From Candidatus Methanomethylophilaceae archaeon (GTDB lineage: Archaea; Thermoplasmatota; Thermoplasmata; Methanomassiliicoccales; Methanomethylophilaceae), in assembly GCA_944320495.1 (NCBI GenBank), contig CALUHR010000013.1, positions 192,001 through 256,000 of the forward strand: a stretch of DNA of 64,000 nucleotides, given 5' to 3'. Of the stretch, positions 1,669 to 61,639 are shown in pieces. The position numbers were made by a program, and so were the translations under genes. Position 1 is the first letter of the stretch; the number at the start of each line of letters is the position of its first letter. Below the pieces are notes generated by a model, which saw only the letters and a program-made list of their open reading frames with translations, was not told where the DNA came from and ran no database searches.

Positions 1669-2700
1669 TCGCTCGCGGAGAATCGCGTCCACCGCATCGG
1701 AGAACGGGACATCCCCGCCGACGCGGAATGTGCGGCACCCCAGACGGCGACCGAACTCCATGTCGGAGTCGCTGTCGCCGACCATCCACGACCTGGACGG
1801 GTCTATGCCGTACCTGGCCATGGCGGCGAGCCCCATGCCTATCTCCGGCTTGCGGCACGAGCAGTTCTCGTCCGGCCGGTGGGGGCAGTAGAAGATGTCG
1901 TCGATGCGCCCGCCCCCGGCCTCGACGGTGCGCCGGAGCTTGGAGTGGATGGCATCGAGGGTCGCGAGGTCGAAGTAGCCGCGGTTGAGCCCGGACTGGT
2001 TGGTTATCACTATGACCAGGTATCCTGCGCGGTTGAGCCTGGCGATCGCCTCCGGGACGTCGGGGTAGACCTCGAACTTGTCCGGGTCGTCGCAGTAGGG
2101 GACGTTCCTGGCGACGGTGTCGTCCCTGTCGATGAATACGGCTCGGCTGCCGAAGAGCTCCCTCTCGACGATGCCGGCCACGATGTGGCAGGCGCAGAGG
2201 TAGCCCTCCTGGACGTGGGGGGTCTCGGTGGTGGGGATGACGACCGCGTGGTCCGCGATCTCCCTCATCTTCCCGCAGTCGCCGGTGAAGGCGATGGTCA
2301 CGCCTCCGCGGGCCTTGGCCTCCTCCATCGCGAGGATCACGTTCTTGGAGTTGCCGGATGTGGAGAGCCCGACGAGGACGTCCCCCTTCCTGCAGATCCC
2401 CTCGACCTGCCTCTTGAACACGATGTCGTAGCTGTAGTCGTTCCCGATGGCGGTCACGGGGGCGATGTTGGACAGGCACACGCCGGGGAGCGCGGGACGC
2501 TCCATCATGTACCTGCCGGAGAACTCGGCGGCGATGTGCTGCGCGTCTGCGGACGAACCGCCGTTGCCGCAGAATATGACCTGATTGCCGTTGCGGAACG
2601 CATCCCTGATGATGTCCGCAGCTTTCCTGATCTGGGCGGGATCGATCGCGGAGATCGCCGCAGCCGCCTTCCCAAGCTCCGCCGTAATCGCGTCAGTCAT
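1669..2700 (-). CDS. gmhA: Phosphoheptose isomerase (GmhA/SIS) plus heptose-bisphosphate phosphatase (GmhB/HAD-IIIA) in one frame; internal CGA at codon 186, proposed CGA stop at 1669-1671
   Basis: CGNGGSSADAQHIAAE, GLSTSGNSKNV, HVQE (GmhA); FIDRDDT, ITNQSG, YCPH..CSCRKP, VGDSDSD (GmhB). The standard-code ORF extends to 1618 through the ilvE promoter. Confidence 0.9.
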
Positions 2701-3709
2701 TTGGATATCTCCAGGATGTCACGCCCTGGGGCTCGAACATGAAGTCGGTGACCTTCGCGCCCATCTTCCCGAGCTCCTGCGCGACATTGTACTTGCGGTC
2801 GTATTCGCATATGAAGTACATGAACCCGCCACCTCCGGCGCCGGTGACCTTGCCACCTATCGCGCCGGCCGACCGCGCGGCGGAGTACATCGCATCTATC
2901 TGCGGATTGGTGATCTTGTTGGAGAACTGCTTCTTGTAGGTCCAGGCCTCGTCGAGGATCTCCCCGGCGGTCCTGATGTCGCCCCTCTCCATGGCCACGT
3001 TCATGGCCTTCGCCAGCCCCTTGGTCCTGTCCAGGGCCTCCTCGTTCTGACCCTTGTTGAACTTGGAGACCTGGCTCTCGATGATGGAGGCGGACTCGCG
3101 GGTGTGGCCGATGTAGCACAGGAGCGAGCAGTACTGGAGTTCATTGACGGTGTCCGGGTCGATCCTGACGCGGTTGACGTTGACGCCGCTGCTGTTGAAG
3201 AGCATGTAGTTGAAACCGCCAAACACTGCCGCGTACTGGTCCTGCTTGCCTCCCTTGAGACCTATGTCCTCCCTCTCCAGCTTGTAGGCCAGGCTGGCCA
3301 TCTCGTGGCCGGTGAGCCTGATGTTCTGCCACTCGCACATGGCAGCGATGATGGAAACGATGACCGTCGACGAACCCCCGAGGCCGGATCCGGGAGGGGC
3401 CTCGGACTGCAGGAACATCTTGAATCCGTCCGTGACCTCGAAGTGGTTGGTCACGGCCTTGATGAGGTCCATGTTGCCGTCGAGCTTGAGCGGTCCGCCG
3501 TCGAGGGACGCCTCGTACTTCCCGTAGTCGGTGGAGTGGACAGACATGGAGTGGTCGTCGGTCGGGGTTATCGTGCAGTATGCATAGCGGTTGATGGTCG
3601 TGTTGAAGACCGCTCCGCCCTTCTTCGACGCGTACGGGTCGACGTCGGTGCCACCTCCCGCGAGGCCTATCCTCAGTGGCGCCCTAGCCCTGTAGTGCGT
3701 ACCATGCAT
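2693..3709 (-). CDS. hddA: GHMP kinase, D-glycero-alpha-D-manno-heptose-7-phosphate kinase-like
   Basis: RAPLRIGLAGGGTDV, PPGSGLGGSS, GGKQDQYAAVFGG, GKVTGAGGGG; adjacent to gmhA/B. Confidence 0.85.
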   Translation of the reverse strand: MHGTHYRARAPLRIGLAGGGTDVDPYASKKGGAVFNTTINRYAYCTITPTDDHSMSVHSTDYGKYEASLDGGPLKLDGNMDLIKAVTNHFEVTDGFKMFLQSEAPPGSGLGGSSTVIVSIIAAMCEWQNIRLTGHEMASLAYKLEREDIGLKGGKQDQYAAVFGGFNYMLFNSSGVNVNRVRIDPDTVNELQYCSLLCYIGHTRESASIIESQVSKFNKGQNEEALDRTKGLAKAMNVAMERGDIRTAGEILDEAWTYKKQFSNKITNPQIDAMYSAARSAGAIGGKVTGAGGGGFMYFICEYDRKYNVAQELGKMGAKVTDFMFEPQGVTSWRYPND

Positions 3710-3881
3710 CCCATTTACCCCTAGAGACGCCCCGATGTAGACAGGGTGTCTGATTTCGCAATTCTATGGGTAATATATAACAATGAGCGTCGAACCCTGC
3801 GATTTCCACGTGCTGGCACATTATGCGGTAGCGCGAAAGGCCAGTCCTCGCATTTATAACATGGAAGACGATTGCCGACCG

Positions 3882-59244: not shown

Positions 59245-60984
59245 TCATCTGCGACGGCCCTTACCGCCCCTGCCGTTCCCCTTCGGCTTGGACCTCTTCT
59301 CGTAGCCGTCATCGACGAAGATCGACTCGAACACGGCGGTCTCGCCCAGCTGCTCGAACCTGGAACGGAGGAACTCCTTCGCCGCCGCGTCCTCGCAGAC
59401 CTTGGACAGCCACTTCACGGACGGGAGCGACCTGTCGCCGTACATCGCCATGTACAGCTTGGCGGACTCCAGCTCCTCACCGATGTCGTGCAGGATGTAG
59501 ACCAGCTGCTTGGAGTTGTGCTCGCCGGACCTGGCCATGGTGACCAGTTCATGCCTGCACTCGTCCATGCCCTTGAGACAGCCCCTCTTGAGCCAGTCGA
59601 GGCCCCTGGACCCGCCCATGAGCCTCGCCACCTCGACGGTCCTGTTCCCATCGAGGCCGCAGTACCTGTCCAGATGTTCGGCGTCCTCCCCGTCGTAGCA
59701 TCCGACCAGCCCGGCGGCGTCCCCGCGGGCCAGGTACATGGATGCGAGCCCTTTCCTGACGTCCTTCCTGTTCTTGACGGGCATCAGCTCGGCGACAGCG
59801 TCGTCGGAGCCGGCGACGGCCGCGTTGATCATGGGCTGTATCCAGTCCCCTCCCTGGGCCTGGACCTTCTTGGCGGAGAGGAACCTGCCGAACGGCGTGT
59901 CGGAGATGCCGAGCTCGGCGGACATGGAGACGATGATGCGGGAGAAGTCCTGCATGCCGCCCCTCAGGTACGCCTCTCTGTCCTCAGAATCGAGGTATCC
60001 CAGGAGGAATCCCGCATCCGGGAACGTTGAGGACAGGTCGGCGAGACGCCTCCTGGCGGATGCGTCGCCCTTCATGGCCTTGATGAACGCCGGGCTTATG
60101 GACTGGCGCTCCTTGGCCCTCCTGTCCATCGCCTTGAGATGGTTCTCGGCCTTCCTGGAATCCTTCTTCCTGACCAGGAGCTTCAGGCCGTCGCGGACCA
60201 TGGCCTCGTCATCGTCTGCATGGGATGCGAGAACATCGATGCGGGGGTCGTCACCCCCGATGCGCCCGAGGCGGATCAGGCTGTAGACGGCGAGAGGATC
60301 GCCCTCGGACGACCTGGACTCGAGGAACGAGCCGTCGTAGTCCGGATCGAGGGTGGAGCAGATGTAGTCGAAGGCCACGAGGACCTCCTCGGGGGAGTCC
60401 TTGGCGGCCCTTCCCCTGGCCGTGGCGAACTCGTCCCTTCCCATCTCGTGGAGCATGCGGGCGGCGTTGCTCTCGCATCCGCCGCTGAGCTTGGCTGCGC
60501 CGTGGAGGTACAGCCTGAGGGCCAGGTCCTTCCTGCCGTTGACCTCGCAGTCGATGCCTTTGAAGAGGATCTTCTCCGGGGTGGACGGGATGGTGAGCCT
60601 GACCTCCGTCTGCTCCCTCGGCCTCTGCTCCTCCTTCCCGCGCGGAGCGCGGTCGTCGCGCCTATGCTCGCGCCTCTGCCCGTGCTGATTGTCGCGCCTC
60701 CCGTCGTACCGGCGGTCGCGTCCCTGGGGCCTGTCGCCCTTCGGGCGGTCCCCCTTGCCCTTGTCATCATGGTTCCTGGGGCGGGCATCGCGCCTCTGCC
60801 CGTCCCTGCGATCCTGACCGTGTCCCTGCCCATCGCGGCGTCCGTCCCTGCGGCTGTCGCAGGGAGCGCCCCTGTAGTCCCTCTTCGGGCCCTTTCCGCG
60901 GTCGCCCCTTGCATCATCGCGTCTGCGGTCTCCGCGGTAGCCGCTCTTTCCGGAGGTTCTCCTGTCAGCATCGTCCTGGCTCAT
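59245..60984 (-). CDS. Hypothetical protein with R/D/G-rich disordered N-terminus and helical (Sel1/TPR-like) core
   Basis: About 95 aa of RRD/DRRD/GDRP repeats, then helical repeats, then a basic tail. Confidence 0.75.
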   Translation of the reverse strand: MSQDDADRRTSGKSGYRGDRRRDDARGDRGKGPKRDYRGAPCDSRRDGRRDGQGHGQDRRDGQRRDARPRNHDDKGKGDRPKGDRPQGRDRRYDGRRDNQHGQRREHRRDDRAPRGKEEQRPREQTEVRLTIPSTPEKILFKGIDCEVNGRKDLALRLYLHGAAKLSGGCESNAARMLHEMGRDEFATARGRAAKDSPEEVLVAFDYICSTLDPDYDGSFLESRSSEGDPLAVYSLIRLGRIGGDDPRIDVLASHADDDEAMVRDGLKLLVRKKDSRKAENHLKAMDRRAKERQSISPAFIKAMKGDASARRRLADLSSTFPDAGFLLGYLDSEDREAYLRGGMQDFSRIIVSMSAELGISDTPFGRFLSAKKVQAQGGDWIQPMINAAVAGSDDAVAELMPVKNRKDVRKGLASMYLARGDAAGLVGCYDGEDAEHLDRYCGLDGNRTVEVARLMGGSRGLDWLKRGCLKGMDECRHELVTMARSGEHNSKQLVYILHDIGEELESAKLYMAMYGDRSLPSVKWLSKVCEDAAAKEFLRSRFEQLGETAVFESIFVDDGYEKRSKPKGNGRGGKGRRR

Positions 60985-61129
60985 GGGAAGTCTGAGCGAC
61001 GACAAGCGGAGCCCCTTTTATTATTATGGGAAAGGAGGGGGCCCTCGCCGACCCCATAAACAAAGTTTTTTATAGAAGTTCTTGCATATACAGAGGTTGT
61101 GAACTGAAGGTTAACAACCTAGAGGTGAG

Positions 61130-61639
61130 ATGATGGACGACCTGGACACGCTGCTATCGCTGGTGGAGAACCCGACGAGGAGACGCATACTCGAGTCCAT
61201 CGTGAGGGAGCCCAGCTACCCGCTGAGGCTATCCAAGGAGCTCGGGGTCAGCCAGCAGGCCGTGATGAAGAATCTGGCGCTGATGGAGCAGAACGGGCTC
61301 GTGGTCAGCTACAGGGAGAGCAGCAGGATGGGTCCGGACAGGACCCTATACGTCCCGAACACCGAGTTCACGCTGGTGGTGGAGATGCACAACAGCATGT
61401 TCTCCGCGAGGGTCATCGGGCCCTCGGAGGACGGTGCGAAGGTCTACGGCATGACCGTGGACGAGGCGTCCCGCCGCATAGACGAGATAGACGATAGACT
61501 GGAGGAGATCGACAGGGAGCGCGCGGCGCTCGTCTCCGAGAGGAACGGACTGGTCCGCATCCTCAGAGGGGCGGACGATGACGATGCGGACGGGAATCCG
61601 CAGAGCGAGGAGATCGCATCAGGATCAATGGAGGTACGA
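61130..61639 (+). CDS. ArsR/HTH transcriptional regulator (CGA at 61637, TGA at 61645)
   Basis: [26 protein letters not shown], coiled-coil C-terminus; upstream of cdc48. Confidence 0.88.

Follow-up and report, generated by a model that had tools for sequence, protein, structure and literature searches.

CGA codons at gene ends in the window

The window, i.e. the whole stretch of 64,000 nucleotides that was analysed, carries, among others, GmhA-GmhB, phosphomannomutase/phosphoglucomutase (PMM), PGI/PMI, PurE, nitroreductase and tautomerase genes, together with HTH and RHH-like genes and two ectodomain genes (Table 1). The host, a methanogen of gut type, belongs to a Methanoprimaticola-like genus of the Methanomethylophilaceae (Methanomassiliicoccales) and has a G+C content of 62%. 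At 17 positions the sequence-only reading had placed a CGA at or near the end of a gene, and all 17 are in-frame CGA codons on the strand named. Sixteen of them coincide with the end of a called gene, the exception being the gar1-like gene, which is too short or weak for calling. The claimed avoidance of CGA as an arginine codon was also confirmed: the 65 genes lying wholly inside the window hold 1236 arginine codons, none of them CGA, and the 77 in the Arg-rich gene at 59245-60984 likewise include none.

The further claim, that CGA coincides with the end of family homology, held for part of the set. Pfam domains finish just upstream of the CGA in the tautomerase, nitroreductase, PGI/PMI and PurE, and likewise in PMM, the CMD-cupin, the ATPase and the HTH protein. 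Gar1 gives a weak match, and its frame reaches the next TGA after just 12 codons; it is the least decisive among the family-supported sites. The ArsR-like, RHH-like, GT-C-like and 'transposase' genes and both ectodomain genes are without a significant family match (no Pfam match for the RHH-like gene and the ectodomain gene 18522-19532, faint HTH matches only for the ArsR/MarR-like wHTH gene). Here, the basis is coding potential and, for some, orthologues with a TGA or CGA end in the corresponding place. The 'transposase' ORF is the weakest case among the listed sites.

With CGA read as a stop the proteins attain family-typical lengths, namely 61 aa for the tautomerase (CGA at codon 62) and 159 aa for PurE (CGA at codon 160). 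Read as arginine, CGA yields the junk extensions that had been described, which pass through neighboring genes, antisense or out of frame, for up to 472 aa; the purE frame would comprise 355 aa, and that of the nitroreductase, whose CGA is codon 223, 694 aa. The PMM and PGI/PMI stops abut, forming the palindrome CGATCG, while the GT-C-like gene and the second ectodomain gene overlap the start of the next gene by 14 and 8 nt, respectively.

Table 1. In-frame CGA codons of the window, with the gene concerned and the supporting observation.
CGA codon	Position	Strand	Observation
gmhB end (HAD phosphatase domain)	1669..1671	-	G013 and G004 orthologues: TGA 2-4 codons later
GmhA(SIS)-GmhB(HAD) junction	2143..2145	-	Candidate programmed read-through, as Arg
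PMM gene 13307-14659 end	14657..14659	+	All four PGM_PMM domains upstream
PGI/PMI gene 14660-15664 end	14660..14662	-	bact-PGI_C 4-151 of 151, ends at residue 328; CGA at 335
Secreted/ectodomain gene 18522-19532 end	18522..18524	-	Coding potential ceases; as Arg +259 aa
GT-C-like membrane gene 19519-20724 end	19519..19521	-	Gene call; weak GT87 match only
Second ectodomain gene 24447-25469 end	24447..24449	-	As Arg +448 aa through next gene
Radical SAM/HhH gene 26158-27783 end	27781..27783	+	Gene call and Pfam
ATPase_2/DUF234 gene 30451-31818 end	30451..30453	-	Gene call and Pfam
Small RHH-like gene 36384-36674 end	36384..36386	-	Gene call; G004 orthologue ends with TGA
purE 47652-48131 end	47652..47654	-	AIRC complete (1-147 of 148); CGA at 160
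gar1-like gene (about 48845-49105) end	49103..49105	+	Weak Gar1 match, E = 0.0011
Small wHTH (ArsR/MarR-like) gene 50171-50422 end	50420..50422	+	As Arg +371 aa, antisense to next gene
CMD-cupin gene 51602-52342 end	52340..52342	+	Gene call and Pfam
TM1586-type nitroreductase gene 52471-53139 end	53137..53139	+	Profile 1-215 of 215, ends at residue 214; as Arg +472 aa
ORF 57392-58996 ('transposase') end	57392..57394	-	Coding score 23.6 (low); no family match
4-oxalocrotonate tautomerase gene 59016-59201 (61 aa) end	59016..59018	-	Tautomerase profile 1-60 of 60
HTH_20 regulator gene 61130-61639 end	61637..61639	+	Gene call and Pfam; one base before next gene's ATG

Stop-like behavior across the genome and in relatives

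By employing a genome-wide coding-potential test, we found that 177 of the 183 in-frame CGAs placed after strongly coding sequence (96.7%) were followed by non-coding sequence. The corresponding values were 94% for TGA and 91% for TAA, and across all sense codons they ranged from 7% to 29%; TAG was mostly sense-like in this genome. The CGA stop pattern is far beyond chance. Gene calling was then compared with and without CGA as a fourth stop. Without it 1460 genes were called at a coverage of 79.6%; with it there were 1616 at 84.1%, the genes tiled better, and the control mock stops CGG or AGA made the gene models worse. The 1616 genes end with TGA (1154), CGA (395), TAA (50) and TAG (17), CGA making up about a quarter (~24%), and sense positions are purged of CGA, which is almost absent inside genes. 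The most codon-biased genes are poor in CGA stops (8 CGA versus 138 TGA in the top decile, as compared with 136 versus 209 in the bottom quartile), which fits CGA as a weaker stop. Back-up standard stops are not in excess, being found within five codons of CGA in 18% of cases and after TGA in 14%.

Orthologues bore out the stop reading, as relatives hold TGA or TAA exactly where CGA ends genes here. At the homologous end codon of purE, 13 genus relatives have TGA and four have CGA, and in one pair of genomes (G014 and G002) the stop region is near-identical while the stop itself differs. The ends of the PMM, radical SAM, PGI, RHH and GmhB genes follow a similar pattern. The PMM gene ends with TGA one codon earlier in G004 and with CGA in G013, the PGI/PMI orthologues end nearby with TGA and TAA, respectively, and the radical SAM/HhH orthologue of G004 (81% identity) also ends with CGA, four codons earlier. 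The G004 homologues of both ectodomain genes (a distant one for 18522-19532) end with TGA.

When whole genomes were compared, stop-like CGA events amounted to 82% of 11 in G013 and 83% of 6 in G004, both members of the genus, and to 89% of 9 and 69% of 13 in G032 and G033, from other genera of the Methanomethylophilaceae. In the outgroup genome G025 (family f3, 60% G+C) only 20% of 69 events were stop-like, and CGA is consequently a sense codon there. The stop pattern thus appears common to the Methanomethylophilaceae and not to G025, the sole outgroup genome tested in this way; in the lower-G+C members G008, G015 and G035 CGA events are few, and a stop is not separable from a merely unused codon. 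Altogether, the DNA of this genome and its relatives strongly supports CGA being used as a terminator and avoided as arginine.

The cognate tRNA, the release factor and CGAs still read as arginine

The sequence-only reading had proposed that tRNA-Arg(UCG) was lost. A tRNA search instead found the gene present and conserved, which also contradicts termination for want of any cognate tRNA, another of the routes it had offered. The tRNA retains the arginine identity features A20 and C35. Four pairs of its anticodon stem are always paired, three of them with compensatory changes, and position 31-39 is paired in none of the 11 aligned species, a mismatch unique among the 45 intron-less tRNAs of the genome. 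The sister clade has C33, while the outgroup tRNA is normal. Such an aberrant anticodon arm presumably results in weaker decoding. With the cognate tRNA present, some read-through is to be expected at the ~400 gene ends, and this, together with the lack of surplus back-up stops, counts against CGA as a stop.

A single aRF1 gene was found, also in complete genomes, and it contains an in-frame CGA itself. In 16 of 17 genus genomes this lies at the same conserved arginine, and in the 17th at another one. All 80 species of the family that were examined have at least one in-frame CGA in aRF1, at recurrent arginine columns, and where column 92 is without it, CGA is found at another column. The context [GCT/TCT]-CGA-CTN is common to all 17 genus sequences sampled, and the combination of T before and C after occurs in only seven of 347 CGA stops. 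No stimulatory RNA structure was found at the aRF1 CGA when one was looked for. The codon suggests a feedback resembling that of prfB (RF2), in which the factor's gene likewise carries an early in-frame codon at which the factor terminates, so that the full-length product needs an escape. In prfB the escape is a +1 frameshift with an SD-like stimulator, whereas in aRF1 the frame would be unchanged, with read-through as arginine, and the CGA shifts among conserved arginine codons across genera.

Changes in aRF1 fixed in the family include Arg to Met four residues after NIKS; replacement of the equivalent human residue, R68, by Ala abolishes release (PMC3632111). Against a role for aRF1, an inspection of its N-domain showed the NIKS and YxCxxxF motifs to be unchanged, and in an outgroup family (f7) Gln occupies the Arg-to-Met position while CGA is apparently sense, as judged from the aRF1 gene. 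In yeast, eRF1 is able to compete with tRNA at CGA and terminate there, and its UGA-biased mutants L123F/R/Y do so better (PMC7379694); the natural residue of archaeal aRF1 at the L123 position is Arg (YRCDS). Of the originally proposed combination of CGA recognition by aRF1 with tRNA loss, the former part is thus the best supported route and the latter failed.

The junction site that had been singled out is real, a CGA separating the GmhA and GmhB domains, with no start codon between it and the DxD motif. Among the genus genomes, 11 have CGA as the junction codon, two have AGA and one has TAG; the fused outgroup genes have AAA. CGA still appears to be needed as arginine at a few sites, i.e. 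in aRF1, at the GmhA-GmhB junction and in a flavodoxin gene. It is accordingly best read as a dual-use codon, or a leaky stop with a few probable programmed read-through sites, although the read-through contexts vary (C, G or T at +4), which counts against this explanation. The core of the original interpretation, CGA as stop, therefore stands, while tRNA loss and the view of CGA as a pure stop do not. New relative to it are the retention of tRNA-Arg(UCG) in aberrant form, the CGA at conserved arginines in all 80 aRF1 genes, and AGA or AAA at the junction in relatives.

A candidate fourth stop codon

We consider it probable, from the sequence evidence, that CGA now serves as a weaker, fourth stop at which aRF1 terminates in competition with a weakened tRNA. 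The single aRF1 would accept C besides U at the first position before GA, and its competitor at CGA would be a tRNA-Arg(UCG) that has been deliberately weakened (unpaired 31-39, or C33 in the sister clade), termination winning at most sites. The tRNA would be kept since a few genes, aRF1 foremost, need CGA as arginine. Abundant aRF1 would truncate its own product at the conserved early CGA, a negative feedback, and when aRF1 is scarce the tRNA would read through. As to origin, TAG may have been largely given to pyrrolysine, and with TAA rare at 62% G+C, aRF1 would act almost only on UGA; mis-termination at CGA could then have expelled it from genes, after which T-to-C pressure may have converted many TGA stops to CGA.

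A less likely account, to which we give only a small share of belief, is that CGA is an effectively unassigned 'hungry' codon, where a stall is followed by rescue release other than by codon-specific aRF1, e.g. through a Pelota-type factor and a hydrolase, or by drop-off, termination being de facto. It would fit the tRNA features expected to weaken decoding, the avoidance of CGA stops by highly codon-biased genes, the unchanged NIKS and YxCxxxF motifs and the Pelota gene found in the genome. However, it leaves the CGA of aRF1, present in 80 of 80 species and relocated when lost, without explanation, rescue for a quarter of all proteins seems costly, and yeast eRF1 itself acts on CGA (PMC7379694).

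Site-specific C-to-U editing of mRNA from in-frame CGA to UGA under a standard code, also among the routes first offered, is very improbable. CGA and TGA do differ by exactly the C/U of a deaminase and interchange at orthologous stops, but genes contain 8943 off-frame NCG-A and 34913 NNC-GA occurrences (hyphens marking codon boundaries), neither depleted. Frame-blind editing, by which Ser, Pro, Thr and Ala codons would be recoded in their thousands, is thereby excluded, and editing would otherwise have to choose ~400 sites lacking a common motif. Editing would also leave unexplained why sense CGA was purged, why the tRNA is altered and why CGA is conserved at aRF1 and GmhA-GmhB arginine positions, and we know of no C-to-U mRNA editing in archaea. 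Most doubtful of all, and close to refuted, is plain arginine with random C-terminal extensions, or TGA miscalled as CGA in assembly or base calling: a tRNA with anticodon UCG and arginine identity features exists and most genomes involved are metagenome bins, but the extensions have no coding signal, sense CGA codons cannot vanish by artefact, the same pattern is seen in dozens of assemblies produced independently by different studies, complete single-contig genomes and a RefSeq strain assembly among them, and CGA is in normal use in an outgroup of equal G+C.

Sense-to-stop changes are known from organelles (NCBI tables 2, 22 and 23), namely AGA/AGG in vertebrate mitochondria, TCA in Scenedesmus and TTA in Thraustochytrium mitochondria. 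As in these, a sense codon of the standard code is gone from coding positions and present at gene ends; unlike these, the case concerns a free-living archaeal chromosome of ~1600 genes, with the cognate tRNA kept and CGA still arginine at a few sites. CGA as a possible archaeal stop also arises from two hydrothermal-vent assemblies in which CGG is Trp, CGA is missing from recognizable domains and tRNA(UCG) was not found, a question left open by the author as the method cannot infer stops (Melnykov 2026, 10.64898/2026.04.02.715157). Those archaea are of another lineage with ~50% G+C, whereas here CGG is still Arg, the tRNA is kept, and stop behavior is seen at gene ends and orthologous stops.

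Termination at CGA by a class-I factor of the eRF1/aRF1 family against an Arg tRNA has its parallel in yeast eRF1/eRF3, where it is a low-level side reaction in reporter genes (Wada and Ito 2018, PMC7379694); in this archaeon ~400 genes would normally end that way. A code-change tRNA with an anticodon stem cut to four pairs is described for tRNA-Trp(CCA) reading UGA in trypanosomatids and ciliates (PMC13092985), although in that case the shortened stem enables a near-cognate tRNA to decode a stop, while here the unpaired 31-39 belongs to the cognate tRNA of a codon that would have turned into a stop. The working set of stop codons is altered within the same archaeal family also by genetic code 34, with all TAG as pyrrolysine in Methanomethylophilus, Methanogranum, Methanoplasma and others, a stop-to-sense change in whose description CGA is mentioned zero times (Kivenson et al., 10.1101/2024.09.30.615893).

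Lastly, the literature searched yielded no established sense-to-stop change in the genome of a cell as distinct from an organelle. If true, the capture of CGA in the Methanomethylophilaceae would be the first case outside organelles of a sense codon becoming a stop.

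CGA at gene ends in the genome and the window

By employing a codon-usage score trained on long standard-code ORFs of the genome (1.77 Mb, 62% G+C, 14 contigs), with CGA and the three stops scored zero, we examined the codon that follows 40 strongly coding in-frame codons and checked the next 40 codons for coding. Run genome-wide, this comparison of CGA with gene ends placed the codon close to TGA and outside the range of every sense codon (see table). At most six of the 399 in-frame CGAs that follow coding sequence have coding sequence downstream. When CGA was added to gene calling as a fourth stop, the number of genes rose from 1460 to 1616, and both the summed coding score and the coverage (79.6% to 84.1%) increased; with the mock stops CGG or AGA, genes were fragmented and coverage was lower. 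The resulting stop usage was 1154 TGA, 395 CGA, 50 TAA and 17 TAG. Because of the coding-potential test together with this gene calling, we conclude that CGA behaves as a DNA-level terminator at approximately 24% of the gene ends.

Codons following strongly coding sequence (TGA, TAA, TAG and sense codons in the genome under study, G000; relatives tested on 100-200 kb of each genome)
Genome	Codon	Events	Then non-coding
G000	CGA	183	96.7%
G000	TGA	728	94%
G000	TAA	23	91%
G000	TAG	13	38%
G000	every sense codon		7-29%
G013 (same genus)	CGA	11	82%
G004 (same genus)	CGA	6	83%
G032 (other genus of family)	CGA	9	89%
G033 (other genus of family)	CGA	13	69%
G031 (other genus of family)	CGA	9	56%
G008, G015 (same genus, complete genomes, 54-57% G+C)	CGA	2-6 each by threshold	too few to class
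G025 (outgroup family f3, 60% G+C)	CGA	69	20%

All 17 gene ends to which the sequence-only reading had assigned an in-frame CGA indeed carry one, on the expected strand, and reading it as Arg lengthens the frames by 2 to 472 codons, often across or antisense to neighboring genes. The further claim that family homology is complete at this point held for many genes but not for all. The CGA lies just after the Pfam profile matches of Tautomerase (1-60 of 60), TM1586 nitroreductase (1-215 of 215), bact-PGI_C (4-151 of 151) and AIRC (PurE, 1-147 of 148), and four PGM_PMM domains, CMD plus cupin, ATPase_2 plus DUF234, and HTH_20 are likewise complete ahead of it. The Gar1 match was weak, and no significant Pfam family match was found for the ArsR, RHH, GT-C, "transposase" and two ectodomain genes, for which other evidence was used. 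The impression that CGA is unused as an Arg codon was borne out by its complete absence among the 1236 Arg codons of the 65 genes lying wholly within the window, which spans C13:192001-256000. CGA is also almost entirely missing from conserved sense positions and found at gene ends where relatives carry standard stops.

A methylation-motif or base-calling artefact was rejected, as no extended motif is common to the 17 window sites, an artefact could not remove sense CGA and the pattern recurs in many independent assemblies; this recurrence also rules out an assembly artefact.

The base following the codon (+4) is T in 56% of CGA stops, compared with 29% of TGA stops and 23% of all CGA trinucleotides, and in 53 out of 347 CGA stops, TCG comes next and completes the palindrome CGATCG. 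One such palindrome in the window accommodates the back-to-back ends of two convergent genes, and the T bias may be a context signal for termination or may simply follow from how the genes are arranged. Among the top decile of genes by codon bias there are 8 CGA and 138 TGA stops, among the bottom quartile 136 and 209, respectively, and this scarcity in strongly codon-biased genes fits a weaker or slower stop. Back-up standard stops within five codons showed no clear excess (18% after CGA versus 14% after TGA).

Distribution among relatives

The substitution of TGA in relatives for CGA, which the sequence-only reading had proposed to look for, was found at purE and at other gene ends. The PurE protein ends at the same residue in 19 same-genus orthologues. 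In 13 relatives the codon that follows is TGA, and in the present genome and four more (G018, G001, G003 and G014) it is CGA, the purE locus of G011, which ends differently, being left unscored. The stop region is near-identical in G014, with CGA, and in G002 and G006, with TGA, and this T/C difference is silent in the downstream gene, which overlaps here, as it falls at the third position of one of its Ala codons. For the orthologues in G013 and G004, the ends were TGA/CGA for PMM, CGA for radical SAM, TGA/TAA for PGI and TGA for RHH and GmhB.

Stop-like CGA thus appears as a clade-wide trait of the genus and family, with lower-G+C members yielding too few events, and it is absent in the outgroup genome G025, where CGA is an ordinary sense codon. 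For the low-G+C genomes G024 and G035, the score was trained on 10 and 9 ORFs only. The nearest named relative, a Candidatus Methanoprimaticola strain, has an archaeal release factor (aRF1) 91% identical to that of the present genome. Use of the CGN box differs sharply within Methanomethylophilaceae: in-frame CGG is nearly as rare as CGA in G008 and G015 (3-11 events in 180-200 kb; L054-L072), and is the main Arg codon in G033, of another genus (451 events).

TAG was found to behave differently from the other stops, as 8 of the 13 strong in-frame cases continue as coding. Several of these genes look like methylamine methyltransferases. In a Methanoplasma bin (G031, L215-L219), we counted 48 TAG events over 100 kb, and 75% of these continue. 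The pattern fits the published code 34 of the family, in which all TAG encode pyrrolysine.

Coordinates of individual features (C, contig of the genome under study; L, sequence stretch from it or a relative)
Feature	Location	Strand	Remarks
CGA between SIS (GmhA) and HAD (GmhB) domains	window 2143-2145		DxD directly after, no start codon between
Convergent PMM/PGI gene ends	window 14657-14662		Within CGATCG
tRNA with anticodon UCG	C13:413317-413390		A20 and C35 (ARAGORN)
Flavodoxin_4 gene	C8 ~55685 = L257:1092-1652	+	CGA at residue 110 of 160, domain 17-158
CGA in ankyrin protein	C8 near 98215		Stop, then new gene in same frame
Second CGA of longest aRF1 ORF	L022 ~1900-1941	-	Just before GGTGAT Shine-Dalgarno-like stretch, upstream of ATG
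In-frame TAG	C3:56643	+	
In-frame TAG	C3:49580	-	
In-frame TAG	C6:85647	-	
In-frame TAG	C13:283837	+	
In-frame TAG	C13:129087	+	

Release factor, tRNA-Arg(UCG) and the remaining candidate sense CGAs

Three mechanisms had been put forward, namely recognition of CGA by aRF1 combined with loss of tRNA-Arg(UCG), C-to-U editing of the mRNA, and stalling for want of a cognate tRNA. For the release factor, family-wide changes were found, though not in its NIKS and YxCxxxF motifs, which are kept. When fixed changes were scored against six other families, the Arg four residues after NIKS (Gln in family f7) was replaced by Met or Leu, Ala at position 56 (Thr in two outgroup sequences) by Met, and Val or Ile at position 104 by Cys; the M domain has three fixed changes. 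The residue equivalent to the first of these in human eRF1, R68, lies in the loop reading the first stop-codon base, and its exchange for Ala nearly abolishes release (PMC3632111). Yeast eRF1 shows detectable termination at CGA in competition with Arg tRNA, and more so in the UGA-biased variants L123F/R/Y (PMC7379694); archaeal aRF1 natively has Arg at the position equivalent to L123.

The aRF1 gene itself, of which a single copy was found (the other eRF1_1 match being Pelota-like), contains an in-frame CGA at a conserved Arg 24 residues after NIKS. This Arg is encoded by CGA in 16 out of 17 genus genomes, there as the sole CGA of the gene, and the 17th (G005) has Lys in this column and a lone CGA elsewhere, likewise at a conserved Arg. 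In 12 genomes of six other families the same Arg is CGC, CGT, CGG, AGA or AGG, and their aRF1 CGAs are scattered across the whole gene. Expanding to 80 species of the family, every aRF1 gene (80/80) had at least one in-frame CGA, nearly always in one of six conserved Arg columns where the codon recurs in the N domain, that of YRCDS among them, and lineages lacking CGA in one column carry it in another. Within the genus, all 17 sampled sequences share the context GCT or TCT, CGA, CTN, of which GCT and TCT are rare codons there; a T before and a C after the CGA occur in only 7 out of 347 CGA stops. Downstream of the aRF1 CGA, a search for read-through RNA structure with RNAalifold returned only weak helices (covariation term -0.2) and nothing convincing.

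The longest aRF1 ORF in G000 and G018 begins with a TTG 10 codons upstream and encloses a second CGA, but since relatives start at the ATG, this stretch is probably leader rather than coding. As its own stop, aRF1 uses TGA in 61, TAA in 15, TAG in one and CGA in two of the 80 family species; one of the CGA cases is a UBA480 bin (L137) whose close relatives have TGA.

Bacteria sense release-factor activity through the in-frame UGA of prfB. An early in-frame codon conserved across a lineage is likewise present in aRF1, although prfB relies on a UGA, a +1 frameshift, a slippery site and a Shine-Dalgarno-like stimulator, whereas in aRF1 the codon is CGA, the frame is unchanged through it and no conserved downstream structure was seen. 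The aRF1 CGA may act as prfB does, by a different device. Its conservation is what would be expected of an aRF1 that ends translation at CGA and of a cell that senses aRF1 activity through it, and is hard to explain without any role of aRF1 at this codon. Together, the family-fixed changes, the in-frame CGA in aRF1 and the yeast precedent lend indirect support to recognition of CGA by aRF1.

The proposed loss of tRNA-Arg(UCG), by contrast, was rejected, as the gene is present. Orthologues occur in 11 species of the genus, and in their alignment the acceptor pairs, the T pairs and four of the anticodon-stem pairs are intact throughout, with compensatory changes in six pairs, three of them in the anticodon stem. 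This conservation indicates that the gene is maintained by selection. It is nevertheless structurally aberrant: none of the 11 species has a standard 31-39 pair (A·A, C·A or U·C being found instead), a mismatch seen in this tRNA alone among the 45 intron-less tRNAs of the genome. In a sister clade (G005, G007, G008 and G015) the tRNA has C33, U33 being near-universal in tRNAs, together with a mismatch at 27-43. In the outgroup, tRNA-Arg(UCG) has the canonical form, and the aberrant forms are expected to decode poorly. As its cognate tRNA is kept, CGA is either incompletely reassigned or has two meanings.

Coding sequence that must continue contains only about three CGAs in the whole genome, those of aRF1, GmhA-GmhB and Flavodoxin_4. 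Out of six candidate sense CGAs, two or maybe three are stops after which a new gene opens in the same frame; this applies to the one at the start of a flavoprotein gene on contig C1 and to that of the ankyrin protein, and one further candidate was dropped for its low-scoring sequence. At the GmhA-GmhB junction, 11 genus genomes have CGA, two have AGA and one has TAG, and AAA (Lys) is found where the genes are fused in outgroup family f7. Since relatives have AGA or AAA there, the CGA occupies what is an Arg/Lys position in the linker of a bifunctional enzyme. The TAG, found in G017 (L247), may be either a stop or pyrrolysine. GmhA and GmhB are separate genes in different frames in G005 (L252/L254) and G007 (L249), the latter with no obvious gmhB start codon visible. 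The Flavodoxin_4 CGA may be a third site of programmed read-through, or else mark a gene that was recently inactivated.

C-to-U editing is excluded in its frame-blind form by the 8943 off-frame NCG|A and 34913 NNC|GA within genes, neither of them depleted, and no target motif was found, the CGA stops sharing no context beyond the +4 T bias.

We hold it moderately probable, judging from sequence comparison, that CGA has a family-wide dual meaning: aRF1 would read it as a stop at hundreds of gene ends, a crippled tRNA-Arg(UCG) would read it as Arg at a few programmed sites, and aRF1 would tune itself via its own CGA. As TAG is largely pyrrolysine in the family and TAA is rare at high G+C, aRF1 is left mostly with UGA and could have come to tolerate C at the first position. 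CGA has been purged from genes; tRNA-Arg(UCG) would have been weakened yet kept for aRF1 feedback and the few read-through sites, and T-to-C drift would then have turned many TGA stops into CGA.

Implications for the family

To our knowledge, every accepted nuclear or prokaryotic code change has turned a stop into sense or swapped the meaning of a sense codon. The change of sense to stop in a free-living organism would fill a missing class and, if true, would be the first of its kind in a cellular genome, as well as a natural case of the codon-capture route. In the literature, no CGA stop was found described for Methanomethylophilaceae or any archaeon beyond a suggestion in a preprint, in which CGA as a stop is raised as a possibility, and left open, for two unrelated vent archaea lacking the tRNA (10.64898/2026.04.02.715157); the preprint on code 34 in this family makes no mention of CGA (10.1101/2024.09.30.615893). 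What is new here is that the aRF1 CGA is conserved and relocated across the family, together with the aberrant forms of the tRNA, the comparison of the GmhA-GmhB junction and the contrast with the outgroup.

The aRF1 CGA would, if the reading is true, make for the first feedback loop of a release factor to be described in archaea, and together with the weakened but retained tRNA it would show how a cell lives with and tunes an ambiguous codon. Public annotations of these genomes under table 11 would be wrong for up to a quarter of the genes, with false C-terminal extensions, swallowed neighbor genes and missed small genes that affect protein databases. Lastly, Methanomethylophilaceae include human-gut and rumen methanogens as well as the organisms from which widely used PylRS/tRNA pairs were taken, and for this reason the decoding rules of the family matter to genetic-code engineers.
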